Part shown: piece by piece, positions 14,119 through 41,406 of the stretch
Layout of the letters: each line of letters opens with the position of its first letter
Numbering within the stretch: the stretch's first letter is position 1
NCBI GenBank assembly: GCA_012269595.1
Contig: JAAXJX010000011.1
Location: 68,184 to 132,183, forward strand
Direction of reading: 5' to 3'
DNA length: 64,000 bases
DNA from: Planctomycetia bacterium
Lineage (GTDB): Bacteria; Planctomycetota; UBA8108; UBA1146
Made by a program: the position numbers and the translations under genes
Notes under the pieces: generated by a model
Seen by the model: only the letters and a program-made list of their open reading frames with translations
What the model was told of the DNA's origin: nothing
The model's database searches: none

Positions 14119-15270
14119 TCAGGGAAGGAATTTACCCGGATTTTTCAGCTTTTGGGGCAAATATTCTTCAATGACGTAGTTCAGGCCCCACATCGCCAAA
14201 GCCTGTTGTTCGGCACGGACTCCCATCGACAACAATTGCTCAATCGCCGATTTCCACTGCTTCTTGCTCTTGAAGAAGGGGTCATTCTTGAGGGCGTCCT
14301 TGGCACGCTTGATATCGACATCCTTCAAGGGGTGGGTCGGAAGTTCGTAGTCGATGATGTCCTGGGGAGTCACTCCCAGATAGGTGGCATTGGGAACACA
14401 GAAGAAGCGATTGATGTGCGCGGCGTTACCCGATCCGACCTTCAAGGTTCGATAAATGTTGGAGATCCCGTAGGGATCGCAATCGACGAAGGCGTAAACC
14501 GGAATCTTGGCCTGTTCGCTGAGTCGGCGAATGAATCGGCGGGTCGAGCGGGTGGGGACTCCCGCCATATTGACGAGAATGCAATTGGAGGTTTTCCAGA
14601 ACTTGTGACTTTGCAGTCTTTGGAAAACACCTCCGGTTTCGATGGCGAGGATGAACTTGGCGCCGGTTTCAAAACTCAAATGCTCGACGGAAGTGGGAAT
14701 GGAATAGGCGCCACTGCCGAAGCGTGTGCAGTCAATGCGTTCGATCTCTCCGGATTCCAGATCGGGATCGAGGACCACCAGATCCCCAGCCACAGCTCCG
14801 CCATGCTCATCGGGCACAAAGCGCAACTGCTCACGACTGACATCGTCGACTGAGAAGAGCGCCTCGATGTCATCCATGACCGTGTCCGATTCGGTTTGGT
14901 CGTCAAACTTGGCTTCTTCCCAGTTTTTGGATTGGTAATAAACGTCTCGCTTGGTAGCAAAATCGTTGTTGATCACCAGTTCCCGGGAAAGGCCCATCAT
15001 GCGCAGTGTTTGTGCGAATCCCTTGACGGTGTTGACGGTCAGGGTGCGTTCCTTGCGGGCGCGGCCAATTTCGAGGTAACCCTTGCGCTTGTCGTAGGAG
15101 ACGTTGCTGAGACTGCGAACCGGGAAACGCATCAAGGGCTTGCCCTTGCGCTGAATCTTTTTGTAAATGTCATCTGCAGCACTCTCGATGCTGGAGATGG
15201 TCTTCTTGTCTTTTTTGGCGTTTTCCCGGCGGACCTTGTCCATGTATGCCCGGGTGATTTTCTTCGTCAT
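14119..15270 (-). CDS. top6A: DNA topoisomerase VI subunit A (Spo11/Top6A)
   Basis: Catalytic-tyrosine motif KRDVYYQSK in the CAP domain and the Toprim acidic motif AFVDCDPYGISNIYRT. 383 aa, with an AAGGGAG RBS. It starts 10 nt after the top6B stop. Confidence 0.9.
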   Translation of the reverse strand: MTKKITRAYMDKVRRENAKKDKKTISSIESAADDIYKKIQRKGKPLMRFPVRSLSNVSYDKRKGYLEIGRARKERTLTVNTVKGFAQTLRMMGLSRELVINNDFATKRDVYYQSKNWEEAKFDDQTESDTVMDDIEALFSVDDVSREQLRFVPDEHGGAVAGDLVVLDPDLESGEIERIDCTRFGSGAYSIPTSVEHLSFETGAKFILAIETGGVFQRLQSHKFWKTSNCILVNMAGVPTRSTRRFIRRLSEQAKIPVYAFVDCDPYGISNIYRTLKVGSGNAAHINRFFCVPNATYLGVTPQDIIDYELPTHPLKDVDIKRAKDALKNDPFFKSKKQWKSAIEQLLSMGVRAEQQALAMWGLNYVIEEYLPQKLKNPGKFLP

Positions 15271-15280
15271 TCAGTCTCCC

Positions 15281-17119
15281 TTACATCTTCCGGCTTTTTT
15301 CGAGAACATCGGCCAGTTTGGATTCTGCTCCGGTTCTCTGTTTATCGCTCAGCTCCAGAATGTCCTGGAGGGCGATGCCGATCTGGGGAATATACTTTTT
15401 GATGTAATCCTTCTTGCGCTCTGCATCCGCGAGTCGACGTTTCTTGCGCAGGTGGATCGCCAATTTTCGGCCCGCCTCCATGATGGCGAGGCGCATCTCC
15501 TTGAGGATCTCGTCGTATCCGGCGACCGCTTTCTTGCTTTCCGAGGTGAATGGAACCCACACACTCGCAATGTGAACCAGGATCGCCAGTGGACCGGTTG
15601 GCAGTGCTCCCCGTGCCTGTTGGACCTCGTAGTTTTTCCACGGGGTCGAAATGATCGATTGCGTGATGGCGCATGCACCCTGTTCGTATTGCAAGGGAAC
15701 CCGATTGGCGAAGCGGAAAATGCTGGCGAGCTCGTCTCCGGGAAGTTCTCCGCCATAAGCGATCCCCGCCTCTACCTGAAAGGGATTTCCGCGATAGACG
15801 GCAGGTTGACGGGTGACTGTCAGGACCAATTCGGGGTCAAAGTTGCGCCGGAGGGTTTTCGCCATCAAATCTTCTCCGATGGGGGAGAGGCAGTTGGTTG
15901 GCGGCGCCATCATCTTGGTCTGTTCGATGGACTTGTGAAGAATCTTGACATCGGCACTGCTCAGCCTGCGGGGGTGACGATCGGTATCGATGTACTTGCC
16001 CAGTTCTTCGCTTTGCTCACTGACCTTTTTCACCACATTCGGGGTCATTCGACAAAACTCGCTGCACAGGAATCCGCTGACAGTTCTGGAAGAGGTGTCC
16101 TTCATCATTTGCATGAGGATTCCCAGTTCCACTCCGTGTGGATGAGGCAGGATTTCCATGGGGGCTTCCGGAAGTTTCTTTGTCACCCGTTCCCAAATGA
16201 TGGGCGCTTTGTCCACAGGGTTTTTGTACTGGATTTCGACTTGGGGGTTGGCGAGGGAGACCTGTTCCAGGAAAGCATCGATAGAGTGCTTGCCTTTCTT
16301 GTAGGTCCCCTCCAACTCGATATGGATTTCGGTTCCATGGGCCCAATCGACGTCGACTTCCTGCTCTTTTTTGACCACCGGTTGGTTTTTTGCCATGTCG
16401 ATGGCAAGGGTGACCCGGGTGGCGGGTTTTCTTTTGGAGGTTCTGCTGGTGACCACCATCGGTTTACCGGTGGTCAGGTTTCCGTACATGCCTGCAGCAC
16501 TGATCCCGATTCCCTGTTGCCCCCGGGTCTGCTTGCGGGCATGGAACTTGGATCCATAAAGCAGTCGACCAAAAATCTTGGGCAACTGCGCAGGAACGAT
16601 GCCTGGCCCATTATCCCTTACGAGAATGGTGTGTTGTTCCTCGGAGGCCGCCGTGACTTCAACGACAATTGTCGGCAGGTATTCCGCTTCCTCGCAGGCA
16701 TCCAGAGAGTTGTCGACCGCTTCCCTGACGGTAGTCAGGAGAGCTCGCGCCGGGCTGTCAAAACCCAGCAGGTGGCGATTCTTGGCGAAGAACTCACTGA
16801 CGGAGATGTCTTTCTGCTTGGCCGCCAACTGTTCAGCCTTATTGGCAGATGCGAAGTCATCTCCGGAGGTCGCACGAGATTTTTTGGTCTTCTTTTTGGA
16901 TCGGGGAGCGGAGCTCTTGGCGGCTTTGCCCCTGGGGCTTTGACTGAAAAGATCCGCCTGTTCCGGTTTCGATCGGGATCCGGTCTTGCCACCGGAAGAT
17001 CGTTTTTTGGCCGCTTTTTTCGTGGCCTTCTTTTTGGCGACTTTTTTGGCTGCCTTTTTTGTCGTTTTTTTGGTGCTCTTCTTCGCGCTCTTTTTCTTTG
17101 CGCTTTTGGTCGGGGACAA
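15281..17119 (-). CDS. top6B: DNA topoisomerase VI subunit B (GHKL ATPase) with an N-terminal Lys/Ala-rich histone H1-like extension
   Basis: Bergerat-fold N box [16 protein letters not shown]1 box DNGPGI, and downstream transducer-domain regions. The first ~100 aa are [31 protein letters not shown]-type repeats. TTG start preceded by GGAGG. Confidence 0.9.
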
Positions 17120-17858: not shown

Positions 17859-18911
17859 ATGACCGGTTCACGTCTGCGGATATTGATCGCACTGCTTGCC
17901 TTGCTCCCGGCAAGCTTCCTGATCTCCAGTGATCTGGGAGCCCAATCGCCGGAAGAATTGGAGCGCCGCTGGAAAAAGAAGCAGGAGTCCTCCTTTCTCA
18001 AGGCGGTCAAATGGGAGCGCTCCCTCGACTCTGCGGTGGAAAGAGCGCGCAGGGACAATCTGCCCATCGTGGCCTACTTCACCCGATCCTATGCCCCATG
18101 ACCGCCTTGCACCGCTTTGGAGAGGGGTCCTCTCCAGTCCGATTGGTGGAAGGAAATGGCCGGCAAGGATTTTGTGCCCTACGTCAACATCAGTGCTCGA
18201 CTTCAGGACAAGCCTGATCAGGATCTGCTGAGAGAGATCGGAGCACGATCCTTTCCGACCACGGTGGTGATGGACGCAGACGGTCAGGTGATCTTGCGTA
18301 ATGACACGGCGGGAGCTTTCCGACCGAATGCAGAAAACAGGGTTCGTGGTGCGGTGGAGGTCGCCTCCGAGTTGGTCAAAGCGAGGTCCTGGGTCAAAAA
18401 CAGTGAAGAAGGTTCCGCAGATCAGGCCGCAGCCAAGGCGAGCCTGTTGCTGCTGGAATCGATTATGGATCTGCGCAAATCCACGGAAAAGGAACTGAAG
18501 CAGGCGGCCAAAACCGAAGGAGTCGACAAAAAGTTGTTGGCCCGTTTTGAGCGCTGGAATGCCTATCAGCCTGTGAACCGCCTTTTGCAGGAGTATGTCC
18601 GCAAGGTCAGGGCTCTCGATTCCGAGGACAAGGTCGGGCGCGGGAAGTTGTATCTGGATACTTCCCGGGAGATGCTCGAACTGTATCGGGCGGGGACCCG
18701 TCTCAATGATGCCAGAATCAACATCTTTTCCGATTACTGGCGGCTGGTTTTTGATGGGGCGATCACCGCAAAGGACCTCGCTGCGGCTGAAACAGCATTG
18801 ACGACCTACCGCAGGGCCTACGGATCCCGAGCTGATCTCAAACCCCGGATCAATCTCATGAGTTCCAAACTCGCAGCCCTGAAAGAAGAACTGGAAGTGA
18901 GTCAGCCATGA
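17859..18911 (+). CDS. Secreted thioredoxin-fold protein; candidate selenoprotein with in-frame TGA (Sec) at 18099-18101 giving a UPPC redox motif
   Basis: ORF-track entries 17859..18101 and 18117..18911 share one reading frame, separated only by TGA plus 5 sense codons. The read-through product ...LPIVAYFTRSYAP-U-PPCTALE... aligns with the Trx motif ...vvdFyAdWCgpCk... (UXXC in place of CXXC). Downstream a cis-Pro FPTTVVMDADGQV matches the Trx fold. A stem-loop lies about 17 nt after the TGA. Confidence 0.5.
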
Positions 18912-19843
18912 AGTCGAAGGATCAGCCTGTTGAATTGATCGGTGTGCCACTGGATCACGGTGCAGGGCAGAGAGGGGTCGCCATGGGCCCGACAGCCTTG
19001 AGAATCGCTGGGCTGACCAAGGCATTGGAGCGACTTGAGCTGAATGTGATAGACGGAGGGGATATTGCGGTTCCCATCCCTGAGCTGGAAAAGCCGGGAG
19101 ATCCGAAAGCCCGTTACCTTGAGACGATTTCCCAGACATGCGGTCAACTGAGTGATCGCGTGAAGGGGGCACTGGACAGTGGTCGGTTGCCGCTGGTGCT
19201 GGGAGGGGATCACTCCGTTGCTGTGGGAACCATCAGTGGTGTTGCCAGTCACTACAACAGTCAAAACCCCGGTTCGATTCCAAAAATCGGTGTGCTCTGG
19301 CTGGATGCCCACGCTGACCTGAATACTCCGGACACTTCACCTACAGGTAATGTCCACGGTATGCCCCTTGCCTGTCTTCTTGGGAATGGGCCCCGCGAGT
19401 TGACCGAAGTCGGTTATGCCGGAACCAAGTTGGAACCCCACCGCATCGTGCAGGTCGGGCTCCGCGATCTGGATCCTGGGGAACGTCGGAATATCCGCGA
19501 AAACAACATTCGTGCCTACACGATGGAAGACGTTGACCGCAGGGGCTTGCCCGTGGTGTTGGAGGAAGCGATCTCTCATGCTCTTGAGGACTGCGATCAC
19601 CTTCATGTGAGTTTCGACATCGATGTCATCGATCCCAGATTTGCACCGGGTACCGGAACCGCGTTGGAGGGGGGCTTCACCTACCGGGAGGCTCATCTGG
19701 CGATGGAAATGATCGCCGAGACTGGCAAGGTTGGGTCCCTTGAACTGGTAGAGGTCAATCCCGTGCTCGATCATGGCAACAAAACCGCAGAAGTGGGCGT
19801 TGCCATCCTCGCGAGTGCGCTGGGAGAGGAAATCCTCGGATAA
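18908..19843 (+). CDS. Arginase-family ureohydrolase (likely arginase)
   Basis: Mn-binding motifs GGDHSVAVG, DAHADLNTP and SFDIDVIDP. ATGA overlap with the upstream gene. Confidence 0.88.
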   Translation: MKSKDQPVELIGVPLDHGAGQRGVAMGPTALRIAGLTKALERLELNVIDGGDIAVPIPELEKPGDPKARYLETISQTCGQLSDRVKGALDSGRLPLVLGGDHSVAVGTISGVASHYNSQNPGSIPKIGVLWLDAHADLNTPDTSPTGNVHGMPLACLLGNGPRELTEVGYAGTKLEPHRIVQVGLRDLDPGERRNIRENNIRAYTMEDVDRRGLPVVLEEAISHALEDCDHLHVSFDIDVIDPRFAPGTGTALEGGFTYREAHLAMEMIAETGKVGSLELVEVNPVLDHGNKTAEVGVAILASALGEEILG

Positions 19844-22684: not shown

Positions 22685-23113
22685 TCAGTTGGCCTTGCTG
22701 GAGCAGTGCTCTTCGTACGCCTGGACCAGATCGAAAGCAATGCTCTGAGGGTCACGGCCTTCAATCATATGGCGTGGCAGGAACCAGACCAGCTCCGAGC
22801 CCTTGAAGAGGGCCATCGATGGGCTGCTGGGGGGGACCTGTGAACAGAAGTCACGGGCTTTTTGAGTCGCTTCCACATCCTGACCGGCGAAGACGGTACC
22901 GATGCGATCCGGTTTCGTTTCGGCCTGAATCGAGAGAACAGCACCGGGGCGTGCACCACCAGCGGCACAGCCACAGACGCTGTTGATGATGACCAGTGAA
23001 GTTTCTTCAGATCCGAGGAAATCCTCTACCTCAGTAGCAGATTTCAGTTCGGTGACTCCATGGTCGGTCAGTTCCTTGCGCATGGGCGCAACCAATTCTT
23101 CAGGGTAAGGCAT
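22685..23113 (-). CDS. BrxA/YphP-family (DUF1094) thiol-disulfide oxidoreductase (bacilliredoxin-like)
   Basis: Contains the CGC-type motif INSVCGCAAGGARP characteristic of the YphP/YqiW (BrxA/B) family; 142 aa. Confidence 0.75.
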   Translation of the reverse strand: MPYPEELVAPMRKELTDHGVTELKSATEVEDFLGSEETSLVIINSVCGCAAGGARPGAVLSIQAETKPDRIGTVFAGQDVEATQKARDFCSQVPPSSPSMALFKGSELVWFLPRHMIEGRDPQSIAFDLVQAYEEHCSSKAN

Positions 23114-37461: not shown

Positions 37462-37560
37462 GTCCCAACTCTCAAACCAGTTAAAAAAAACTCAAAAAAG
37501 TCGGGAACGATGACGGCGTTTTCTGCCTCTCAGATGATGAACCTGAGTGGAGGTGCGCCC

Positions 37561-38985
37561 ATGTTTGTCAGGCAGATCACAGACGATCAGTTGGCTCAAT
37601 ACAGCTATCTCATTGGCTGTCAGCGCACCGGTGAAGCCATCGTTTTCGATCCCATGCGGGATATCGACCGCTACGTCGACCTGGCGAAGCAGCAGGGGCT
37701 CAAGATTGTGGCCGCTGCGGAAACCCACATTCATGCGGACTTTTTGTCGGGACTCCGGGAATTGGGTGAACTTCCCGGTGTAGAGCTGTTTCTTTCGGGT
37801 GAAGGTGACAAGGAATGGAGTCCCCGCTGGCTCGATCAGCATTCAGGGGGTGGTTCCTATGATCATCGGCTTCTGAAGGATGGAGAGGTCTTCTCCATAG
37901 GAAATATCGACTTCAAGGTTCTTCATACCCCCGGACATACTCCTGAGCACTTGTCCTTTCTGGTCACCGATCGTGGGGCAGGGGCTGATCAGCCAATGAC
38001 ACTGATTTCCGGAGACTTTCTATTTGTGGGTGATCTGGGGCGCCCGGATCTGTTGGAGACCGCTGCTGGCCATGCAGGGTCGATGGAGCCCGCAGCCCGA
38101 GAGCTTTTCCAGAGTGCTCACTTGATCAACCTTCTTCCCGAGTTTGTTCAGGTCTGGCCCGGTCATGGATCTGGCAGTGCGTGTGGAAAAGCATTGGGCG
38201 CAGTGCCCACAAGTACCATTGGTTATGAAAAGAGATTCAATTCTGCCCTCTCCCATTCAGCGAGCGAAGAGGAGTTCGTGCAGAAAATCCTTTCGGGACA
38301 ACCGGAACCCCCTCTGTATTTTTCAGAAATGAAACGCCTCAACAGGGATGGGGTTCCGGTACTTGAAAAGATCAGAACTCCAAAAAGAATGAATGAGGAT
38401 CAGTTTGTTGCCGCTTATGAAAGCGGTGCCATCGTGGTGGATGCCCGCGATTGGGTACTGTTCAAGGAGCAGTTTTTGCCGGGATCCCTGTCGATCCCCA
38501 TGAACAGCAAGCTTCACTCGATGTTGGGCAGTTTTGTTGAACTCCAAGATCGCCTGCTTCTCGTGTGTGAAGAAGAAGACCTCAAGGTGCTGGTCCGTCG
38601 CCTGATCAGAATCGGATACGACAAGATTCTGGGGTGGGTCCATCCTGACGAAATCATCGGTTTAAGCAGTTATCTGGGAGCATGGGGAACGATTGAAGAG
38701 TCGGATCCGGTAGAGATTTCCACAAAGATCGAGTTATCGGGACGCAGGATTCTGGATGTTCGAAAATCCTCCGAATTTGAAAATGATCATATTCCTGGCG
38801 CAATCAACATCCCTCACACACTCTTGAGGTCTCGTCTCAAAGAGTTGGATCGTGGGGTGACCTGGTACGTCGTCTGTGAAACAGGTGATCGCTCTGCTCG
38901 CTCAGCCAGCTTTTTGAATGCCATGGGCTGGCCAGTCGTCAATCTCTCCGGTGGCATGCATGCATTGCGTGCGAAGAGGGTTTAA
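37561..38985 (+). CDS. Persulfide dioxygenase (MBL fold, ETHE1-like) fused to two rhodanese domains
   Basis: MBL metal motifs ETHIHADF and HTPGHTPEH, and a C-terminal rhodanese module (...VVCETGDRSARSA...). Start at the ATG with GGAGG 8 nt upstream; the ORF track starts at 37510. Confidence 0.85.
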   Translation: MFVRQITDDQLAQYSYLIGCQRTGEAIVFDPMRDIDRYVDLAKQQGLKIVAAAETHIHADFLSGLRELGELPGVELFLSGEGDKEWSPRWLDQHSGGGSYDHRLLKDGEVFSIGNIDFKVLHTPGHTPEHLSFLVTDRGAGADQPMTLISGDFLFVGDLGRPDLLETAAGHAGSMEPAARELFQSAHLINLLPEFVQVWPGHGSGSACGKALGAVPTSTIGYEKRFNSALSHSASEEEFVQKILSGQPEPPLYFSEMKRLNRDGVPVLEKIRTPKRMNEDQFVAAYESGAIVVDARDWVLFKEQFLPGSLSIPMNSKLHSMLGSFVELQDRLLLVCEEEDLKVLVRRLIRIGYDKILGWVHPDEIIGLSSYLGAWGTIEESDPVEISTKIELSGRRILDVRKSSEFENDHIPGAINIPHTLLRSRLKELDRGVTWYVVCETGDRSARSASFLNAMGWPVVNLSGGMHALRAKRV

Positions 38986-39581
38986 TGGCTATGGAAAAAG
39001 AAACTGTCCAAAAGAATCTTCAGAGAGGGCTTTCGAACGAAGAGTCCCGGGCACTGATTGAACGTGGACAGGCCCTGCTGATCGATGTGCGAGAACATGC
39101 CGAGTTTAAGGCAGAGGCGATTTCAGGAGCACTGTCGCACCCACTTTCAACATTTGACTCTGAAACCCTTCAGGTCTTCATGGGGAAGCGGGTACCGATT
39201 TTTTACTGTCGTACCGGCATTCGTTCTGAAGAAGCGTTACAGCGCTGGTTAAAAGAGGAGAGAGACGGATTCCATCTCGTTGAAGGAATCCGCAATTGGA
39301 CCTCTGCAGGTTTTGAAGTGAGAACTCGTCAGGCAGGGTCAAGGATCGATGTCATGAGACAGACCCAGATGGTGGCTGGATCCCTGATTTTAAGCCTGTC
39401 CTGTTTGGCCATTTTTGTGAATTCGCTCTTTTGGATCGGTTCAGTCGCAATTGGATTGGGCTTGTTCCATGCCGGAGCCAGTGGAACTTGTGGGTTGGCC
39501 ACGGTGATCTCCTGGCTCCCCTGGAATCGGCGAGTCCCTGTATCAGTTGTGGGTGATGCAGGAGTGGGATCGATTTCATAG
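38985..39581 (+). CDS. YgaP-like protein: rhodanese domain plus C-terminal DUF2892 membrane domain
   Basis: Rhodanese active-site loop FYCRTGIRS followed by two TM helices with a GxxxG-rich DUF2892-like segment. ATGG overlap with the upstream gene. Confidence 0.75.
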   Translation: MAMEKETVQKNLQRGLSNEESRALIERGQALLIDVREHAEFKAEAISGALSHPLSTFDSETLQVFMGKRVPIFYCRTGIRSEEALQRWLKEERDGFHLVEGIRNWTSAGFEVRTRQAGSRIDVMRQTQMVAGSLILSLSCLAIFVNSLFWIGSVAIGLGLFHAGASGTCGLATVISWLPWNRRVPVSVVGDAGVGSIS

Positions 39582-40370: not shown

Positions 40371-40502
40371 CAAGCAAGCATGAATATCCTTTCCCCCGGG
40401 GAAAGTCAAGACTCCCCGACGATGTTGGCCCAGTTCATGGTAAAACTCTTCCTTGACCCCGCTATTCGGGGGTGGATCGGGAGCGAGGAAGGAATCGATG
40501 CG

Positions 40503-40952
40503 ATGAAGGTGGTGGCCCAGAATCGACGGGCACGCTTCGAACTGGAGATCCTTGACACTCTGGAGGCGGGAATCGTCCTGCAGGGCTCCGAGGTCAAGAG
40601 TCTTCGTGCAGGCCAATGTGAAATGGTCGATGGTTTTGTCCGTGTTGAGGCGGGTGAGGCCTTCATGCACAAGGTGCGCATCGCAGAATACAGTCATGGT
40701 GGTTACTCCAATCATGAGCCGACCCGCAAGCGCAAACTGCTGGTTCACAAACGTGAGGCCAACCAGCTACGGGTCAAGATGGAGGAAAAGGGTCTGACCA
40801 TCGTCCCCCTGAAGATCTATTTCAACGAGAAGGGCAAGGTCAAGGTCGAGATCGGTATCGGTCGCGGCAAGAAGGCCCATGACAAGCGCAAGGCCACAAA
40901 AGACAGGGAAACGAAGCGGGAGATCGACCGCGAAATGCGTCGACGTCGCTGA
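40503..40952 (+). CDS. smpB: SsrA-binding protein SmpB
   Basis: Canonical SmpB sequence (MKVVAQNRRARFELEILDTLEAGIVLQGSEVKSLR ... KLLVHKRE...) with a basic C-terminal tail. Start set at the internal ATG to give 150 aa; the ORF track starts at 40380. Confidence 0.9.
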   Translation: MKVVAQNRRARFELEILDTLEAGIVLQGSEVKSLRAGQCEMVDGFVRVEAGEAFMHKVRIAEYSHGGYSNHEPTRKRKLLVHKREANQLRVKMEEKGLTIVPLKIYFNEKGKVKVEIGIGRGKKAHDKRKATKDRETKREIDREMRRRR

Positions 40953-41053: not shown

Positions 41054-41406
41054 GGGGGCGAAACGGTTTCGACCGGACGATGGAACGTCGTGTGGCAGGT
41101 GGAGGTTGTCCGGAGGCCTCCTTAAACACCGGCAAAATTTTTGACTGCGAACAACAACTTCGCACTGGCTGCCTAATACTGGCGCCCCTTCCCCCGCGGC
41201 ATGTCCAGGGCCGCGGACGGAGGGCCATTTTTCTGGACTGGCCGAAGAAGACCCTGCCAGTGGTCTTTGAGGCGAGATCGAACTGGCGACCGTGGATCGG
41301 ATCCTGTCCGTTGGAGCTGACCTCGGTTTTAAAGAACGGACTATGCCTGTAGAAGCTCGGCGGGAAACGTTTCGGGACCCGGGTTCGACTCCCGGCGCCT
41401 CCACCA
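41054..41406 (+). ncRNA. ssrA: tmRNA (ssrA)
   Basis: The 5' end GGGGGCGAAACGGTTTCGAC pairs with the 3' end. The 3' T-arm-like GGGTTCGACTCCCGGCGCCTCCACCA ends in CCA. An internal tag-peptide frame ...GCG AAC AAC AAC TTC GCA CTG GCT GCC TAA gives (A)NNNFALAA. It lies immediately downstream of smpB. Confidence 0.85.

Follow-up and report, generated by a model that had tools for sequence, protein, structure and literature searches.

Does the UGA codon that interrupts a thioredoxin-like reading frame at position 18099 of this planctomycete locus specify selenocysteine (Sec), and is the stem-loop that follows it the element directing that decoding? The window, that is, the whole stretch of 64,000 nucleotides that was analyzed, comes from a Planctomycetia bacterium (GenBank assembly GCA_012269595.1, contig JAAXJX010000011.1). 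Its first-pass annotation had placed a two-tier hairpin immediately 3' of this UGA and likened it to the bacterial SECIS (bSECIS) elements that bind SelB. From folding, comparison with homologous loci, and database searches, we consider it highly probable that UGA 18099 is served by a bacterial SECIS whose SelB-binding core is the upper hairpin; the part assigned to SelB is one that we infer. The features concerned are listed in Table 1.

Table 1. Coordinates of the candidate selenoprotein gene, its decoding element, and the adjoining gene (window positions).
Feature	Position	Strand	Basis
Predicted selenoprotein gene, 350 codons	17859..18911	+	Two ORFs sharing one frame
In-frame UGA, codon 81, Sec reading	18099..18101	+	Family Sec/Cys codon counts
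Probable SECIS upper hairpin, conserved	18117..18137	+	Folding, covariation, RNAalifold, synonymous recoding
Lower stem CACC 18110-18113 / GGUG 18145-18148	18110..18148	+	Predicted in window, not conserved
Alternative lower helix CCGCC 18102-18106 / GGUGG 18145-18149	18102..18149	+	Orthologue folds
Arginase gene	18908..19843	+	NCBIfam rocF arginase, E = 2.4e-91

The Gene and Its In-Frame UGA

The upstream open reading frame (17859-18101, 80 aa) ends at the TGA, and the downstream one, in the same frame, extends from 18117 to 18911. Read through, the product contains the motif YFTRSYAP-*-PPC with the stop as codon 81, and the UxxC motif, of thioredoxin type, begins at the UGA (YFTRSYAP-U-PPC). 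The UGA and the hairpin both lie within this single reading frame, which is the arrangement that the bSECIS model calls for. In the orthologues, the protein sequence is kept on both flanks of the TGA.

The product has a signal-peptide-like N-terminus, a thioredoxin-like domain at about residues 50-147 with Sec81 in U-P-P-C, and, at the C-terminus, a helical domain of about 200 aa. Judging from its residues, the N-terminus is a putative signal peptide. When Cys was written in place of the stop, Pfam Thioredoxin_7 matched residues 52-140 (E = 1.4e-5) in an alignment that crosses the UGA; this match and that to Trx_2 were both under the gathering score. With the family profile, DsbH (PDB 2ju5), a periplasmic disulfide reductase, was matched at E = 4e-6, the first Cys of its CMWC active site being aligned to codon 81 (U81). 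In an AF2 model of P0012, a Cys homologue, the C-terminal domain comes out as helical and the N-terminal domain is poorly resolved (pLDDT < 50). A Foldseek search of this model against the PDB gave nothing significant, the best being weak TPR-like matches (E > 0.1).

TGA is the commonest genuine stop in the window, where it terminates 27 of the 38 long frames, which indicates a standard genetic code in which UGA is not reassigned. No comparable hairpin accompanies the TGA that ends the selenoprotein gene (18909-18911). When the window was scanned for further in-frame TGAs flanked by open frames and followed by a hairpin with a G loop, 18 candidates emerged, and a redox motif together with long frames on both sides was found only at 18099.

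Homologues and the Sec/Cys Codon

The family was sampled at 153 loci from Planctomycetota genomes and metagenomes, about 150 of them added by scans of GTDB genomes and JGI metagenomes; the loci from these scans are nearly all in Planctomycetota MAGs. The codon at the UGA site was TGA at 137 loci, TGC at 13, and TGT at 3, with TAA and TAG at none, and the Sec form is thus about nine times as frequent as the Cys form in the loci recovered. TGA persists across the 137 loci down to a protein identity of about 30%, and the sources of these loci include marine, freshwater, soil, and groundwater samples. We read the UGA as Sec because the position it occupies is that of the catalytic Cys in a CxxC motif, and Cys codons are the only ones found in its place.

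Protein searches returned C-terminal fragments of about 251 aa, gene calls that had been cut at the stop. The exception was P0012, a full-length homologue of 311 aa with CPPC, in which the codon is TGC. In the fetched contigs, an in-frame TGA was present at the equivalent codon in every orthologue; proteins from contigs CAJXMG010000015.1, JACETR010000007.1 (MCMED-G47), and JAPOLY010000004.1 are 98-99% identical to that of the window. Eleven MAGs hold both the orthologue and a 33%-identical paralogue, with a TGA and a hairpin in each.

The paralogue clade (L041-L056 and L102-L110; e.g., L043:10217), about 33% identical to the orthologues, has the signature YFTRSYAP-U-[GP]PC..MEGGPLLSDWW, and its SECIS hairpin is like that of the orthologue, often with the 4-nt loop GGUC. 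Tandem family copies about 1 kb apart were observed in L067 (10148, 11080), L082 (443, 1385), L083 (10154, 11126), and L117 (636, 1605), while L060 has a Cys copy (7223, TGC) beside a Sec copy (8359, TGA). Apart from the Cys copy in L060, every tandem copy is provided with a TGA and hairpin of its own, and the two members of a pair often differ in pairing register. The gene for P0012, a distant family member (L007-L009), lies directly upstream of ArgR and an argC/B/D/F/G/H cluster.

Folding of the Window Sequence

The core of the upper hairpin is a 7-bp stem formed by GGAGAGG (18119-18125) and CCUCUCC (18129-18135), which closes a GGU apical loop at 18126-18128, 24 nt past the UGA. A U-A pair and a U.G pair lengthen this core to 9 bp. 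The placing of these elements in the first-pass annotation, with the lower stem starting 8 nt and the upper stem 17 nt after the UGA, agrees with the sequence, as do the upper stem and the GGU loop that it described. The predicted free energy is −12.8 kcal/mol for the 21-nt hairpin and −11.7 kcal/mol for the 7-bp core.

Folding of the 62 nt from the UGA onwards gave a minimum free energy (MFE) of −26.9 kcal/mol (z = −2.6), which was equaled by 3 of 200 shuffles. The upper part of this MFE structure consists of UUGGA/UCCGA and GGGG/CUCC (pair probability ~0.54). The conserved upper stem, in its 9-bp form, belongs to the second-best structure, at −26.2 kcal/mol (pair probability ~0.45). The annotation had held that its hairpin should be the MFE structure, and taken literally this fails, as the upper stem lies 0.7 kcal/mol above the minimum and makes up about 45% of the ensemble. 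Hairpins at this spacing also arise by chance, with at least 9 bp after about 3% of the TGA trinucleotides of the window and at least 7 bp after 15%. The hairpin of a single sequence is thus weak evidence by itself, and since such a hairpin is not rare by chance, comparison with other sequences is needed.

The lower tier was considered separately. In the window sequence, CACC/GGUG is part of the MFE structure and has a pair probability of 0.999. As a family feature it was rejected, with 74% of cells paired in 24 distinct orthologue sequences; its middle two pairs are A-G mismatches in 13-14 of the 24. Most orthologue MFE folds have CCGCC/GGUGG as the lower helix, in which Pro-Pro codons pair with Trp-Trp codons, and 98% of its cells are paired in the 24 orthologues with variation at a wobble column only. 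This helix is uninformative because near-invariant codons make it up, and the two Trp codons are absent in more distant family members. On this comparison of sequences, the conserved element is the upper hairpin alone, and the CACC/GGUG stem is lineage-specific. Of the two tiers originally described, the upper one has stood and the lower one has not.

Conservation and Covariation of the Hairpin

Among the distinct sequences of the family, 7 or more contiguous base pairs were found in 92 of 99 with TGA vs. 1 of 14 with a Cys codon, the other 13 Cys sequences having at most 6 bp at the SECIS position. This bears out the expectation that the hairpin would be kept in orthologous genes. In 95 of the 99 TGA sequences, the best hairpin has a loop whose first nucleotide is nt 28 or 29, numbering from the U of the UGA, a spacing of 24-25 nt. 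One family member with a TGT codon (L114:273-323) retains an 8-bp hairpin, GGAGGGCG-GUC-UGCUCUCC, at the SECIS position, and this is plausibly a 'fossil' SECIS left after a recent conversion from Sec to Cys.

The TGA sequences fall mainly into two pairing registers. Register A (alignment A2, pairs 19-39 to 27-31), to which the window belongs, has 92.4% of cells paired and 4 compensatory pairs, and register B (alignment A3), shifted by 1 nt, has 94.6% and 4, both percentages being inflated because each sequence was assigned to a register by its best helix. Registers A and B together account for 84 sequences out of the 99; of the 15 left over, 11 have a 7-9 bp stem closed by a 4-nt loop. Two examples of compensatory change in A2 are pair 27-31, which occurs as G-C or C-G, and pair 25-33, which occurs as G-C, A-U, or C-G. 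For covariation, A2 scored 0.335 compared to 0.147 in shuffles, none of 500 of which reached it, and controls in which the pairing was slid along A2 had at most 65% of cells paired. The distance from the UGA stays constant while the register of the hairpin slides by 1 nt relative to the codons.

RNAalifold, run with no structure supplied, gave exactly the 7-bp stem GGAGAGG/CCUCUCC as the A2 consensus (columns 21-27 with 31-37), which is the stem of the first-pass annotation, and an equivalent 8-bp stem on A3. The upper structure of the single-sequence MFE was rejected as the biological fold, as it had only 70.5% of cells paired, did no better than shuffles, and had no covariation. The literal failure of the MFE prediction is thus reversed, because the comparative data (92.4% vs. 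70.5% of cells paired, covariation, and RNAalifold) favor the stem that the annotation had claimed.

Comparison with Known SECIS Elements and Selenoproteins

The bSECISearch consensus model (Zhang & Gladyshev 2005, as summarized in PMC13188914) has four requirements: an apical loop of 3-9 nt on an upper stem of 4-16 bp; at least one G in loop positions 1-2, usually with G or U next; a distance of 16-37 nt between UGA and loop; and an MFE of at most −7.5 kcal/mol (PMC13188914, Fig. 2A). The window element agrees with all four, having a 3-nt GGU loop, a stem of 7-9 bp, a spacing of 24 nt, and −12.8 kcal/mol, and the match in spacing and G/U loop that had been claimed for it is thereby upheld. 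Its loop, G-G-U, follows the rule on G. In 24 of the 99 family sequences the loop is GGC or GGA, in which the second G fits 'G or U' and no U is present; in the E. coli SelB-contact model a U comes after the G, and its absence from these loops is a point against the SECIS reading. Like the elements described by the model, that of the window is a stem-loop within the coding sequence, directly 3' of the Sec-UGA, with a small loop that starts with G and then G or U. Its primary sequence is unrelated to those of characterized elements, as is usual for bSECIS, and it differs in that the stem is a perfect helix without a bulged nucleotide and conservation within the family does not extend to the lower helix.

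Another close comparison is the SECIS of E. coli fdhF, a SelB-binding minihelix in which G23 and U24 of the loop contact SelB and U17 is bulged. Both elements are hairpins downstream of the UGA with GU in the apical loop, and the same tethering of SelB.GTP.Sec-tRNA(Sec) is presumed. In the planctomycete element, however, the GU is at nt 29-30 from the U of the UGA rather than 23-24, two codons further on; it has no bulged U, and its loop is of 3 nt compared to 4-6 in fdhF. The host is a planctomycete, and the product has a thioredoxin fold, whereas that of fdhF is a formate dehydrogenase.

An Rfam search of the hairpin region matched no SECIS family at the gathering score or at E ≤ 10, and the comparison with covariance models that had been proposed for this element is in this form uninformative for bSECIS. 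The sole match at E ≤ 10 was a chance one to CRISPR-DR52 (E = 9.5). Since bSECIS sequences are too diverse for such models, the miss was expected and is not counted against function. A covariance model built from A2 (R1) matched only the family's own site in the window and 754 kb of loci, which makes it a homology detector and not a general SECIS finder.

With respect to the protein, the compared group comprised UxxC selenoproteins (the thiol:disulfide interchange protein PF13098, VPGUxxT NF041383, and Trx7/PDZ NF041199) and DsbH (2ju5). The planctomycete family resembles them in its thioredoxin-like fold, a Sec at the N-terminal position of a CxxC-type motif, apparent export, and the existence of Cys homologues. 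It differs in the YFTRSYAP-U-xxC motif, the helical C-terminal domain of about 200 aa, and the linkage to arginase, which are specific to it. None of the curated NCBIfam selenoprotein models reached its cut-off (best scores: NF041383, 31.2 bits against 275; NF045694 TsoB, 19.4 against 805). Searches of the literature by motif and by phylum found no mention of the family.

Selenocysteine Machinery

Searches of the 64-kb window and of 1.55 Mb of related loci found neither selA, selB, or selD nor a tRNA-Sec, an outcome that is uninformative about the remainder of the genome and not a negative result. ARAGORN reported no tRNA-Sec in the window or in all 173 sequences, Pfam and NCBIfam scans of 20 window ORFs gave no SelA, SelB, or SelD, and tblastn of E. 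coli SelD had no match in the 1.55 Mb of loci. As no Sec machinery lies within the window, we infer the dependence on SelB. Complete Sec machinery has been documented in other Planctomycetes (PMC4807772), and this, together with the MAGs that carry two TGA-plus-hairpin paralogues, is indirect support for a Sec-decoding trait.

Alternative Explanations

The hairpin could be a by-product of G/C-rich, partly self-complementary codons (GAG...CUC) with no role in decoding, in which case Sec insertion, if any, would rely on something else. The stem encodes a conserved L-E-(G/R)-G-P-L-Q in which GAG (Glu) is invariant and is followed by Leu or Phe, and part of the conservation of the stem is indeed at the protein level, as its codons encode conserved residues (L-E-x-G-x-L). 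In addition, 3-4 stem pairs are invariant within each register class, and a 9-bp hairpin follows about 3% of the TGAs of the window. However, the Cys homologues carry the same L-E-x-G-x-L motif, and 13 of the 14 lack the hairpin. When the window peptide was recoded synonymously 2000 times, with codons resampled by the codon usage of the window, a stem of at least 9 bp survived in only 0.6% of the recodings, and 3.2% folded as stably; for stem length, the family-wide median p in such recoding was 0.03 for Sec forms vs. 0.62 for Cys forms. That few recodings keep the stem, and that Cys homologues have the motif without the hairpin, indicates that selection acts on the RNA. The compensatory changes at pairs 25-33 and 27-31 also cross amino-acid changes, and the distance from the UGA is held even though the register slides relative to the codons. 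An origin as a coding by-product is very improbable on this evidence.

Decoding without SelB, in which the hairpin would promote near-cognate readthrough (Trp or Cys) or translational pausing, would agree with the lack of Sec machinery in the window and the 1.55 Mb of loci and with the lack of an Rfam SECIS match. In other systems, readthrough of a stop codon is known to be promoted by structures downstream of it. Yet the UGA stands exactly at the catalytic Cys of the CxxC motif and alternates only with Cys codons, which is the signature of Sec; the position of the loop and its leading G agree with the bSECIS model; and a paralogue carried by the same genomes is arranged likewise. We consider this explanation very improbable. 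Finally, the TGA could be a true stop that separates two genes (an 80-aa peptide and a protein of 251-264 aa) or marks a pseudogene, with the hairpin irrelevant or acting as a terminator or attenuator. Apart from P0012, the database entries are fragments that start after the TGA or end at it, and a TTG or ATG start exists downstream. Such a stop, however, would break the thioredoxin fold midway through its active site. All orthologues conserve, in frame, the 16 codons that separate the TGA from the called starts, full-length Cys homologues such as P0012 exist, and the TGA is retained at the 137 loci to about 30% identity with no replacement by TAA or TAG. A true stop has hardly any likelihood.

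In the SECIS reading that we prefer, a ribosome translating 17859-18911 would meet UGA 18099, and the hairpin, with its GGU loop starting 24 nt downstream, would tether SelB.GTP.Sec-tRNA(Sec). Selenocysteine would then be inserted in place of termination, and the resulting oxidoreductase, of thioredoxin fold and exported, would have U-P-P-C as its active site.

Gene Neighborhood

The start codon of the arginase gene overlaps the terminal TGA of the selenoprotein gene (ATGA), with CCATGAAG at 18906-18913. The order of selenoprotein and arginase was also found in L001, L004, L006, L011, L013, and L014, and it is kept in all marine orthologous loci. By gene neighborhood, a link between the selenoprotein family and arginine metabolism is suggested.

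Directly upstream is a topoisomerase VI pair on the minus strand (14119-15270 and 15281-17119), which is syntenic in all orthologous loci; its subunits correspond to A (TP6A/Spo11-like) and B (HATPase/Topo-VIb), names taken from the Pfam families of the syntenic genes and applied to the window ORFs by position and length only. Topoisomerase VI is uncommon in bacteria. A BrxA/BrxB-family bacilliredoxin (22685-23113, minus strand; TIGR04191, E = 8e-57), a thiol-redox protein, is encoded 4 kb downstream in the conserved neighborhood. Further along the plus strand, a metallo-beta-lactamase/rhodanese fusion (37510-38985) is followed by a stand-alone rhodanese-domain protein (38985-39581), and the two (37510-39581) look like a sulfur-transfer or persulfide-handling pair. 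The same strand encodes smpB (40380-40952) and, immediately after it, a tmRNA gene (41054-41406; Rfam RF00023, 160 bits).

Implications

The SECIS mechanism at this locus is ordinary and of the textbook kind, and the gene is best regarded as coding for a thioredoxin-fold UxxC selenoprotein with a canonical bSECIS. The family itself seems to have gone unrecognized, as the database entries that two protein searches returned are unnamed or labeled 'hypothetical protein' and all but P0012 are truncated. A broader proposal, which we make tentatively and with slightly less than even confidence, is that this is an undescribed selenoprotein family confined to Planctomycetota, with an exported thioredoxin fold, the YFTRSYAP-U-xxC motif, a helical domain of about 200 aa, and translation coupled to arginase in the marine clade. 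It would combine a Sec to Cys ratio of about 9:1 with a hairpin held at a fixed distance from the UGA in a sliding register, and annotation would have turned each of its members into two 'hypothetical proteins'.

The result leaves the biology of recoding unchanged, and its practical value is in annotation: a sizeable Planctomycetota family, with at least 137 TGA-bearing loci, is mis-annotated as truncated hypothetical fragments. Its 99 distinct variants in two registers, together with the one Cys-form 'fossil', are a natural data set for a lineage-specific SECIS consensus. The family adds to the evidence for the use of selenocysteine by uncultured marine Planctomycetota, and the arginase coupling, being conserved, hints at a link in function as yet unexplored.
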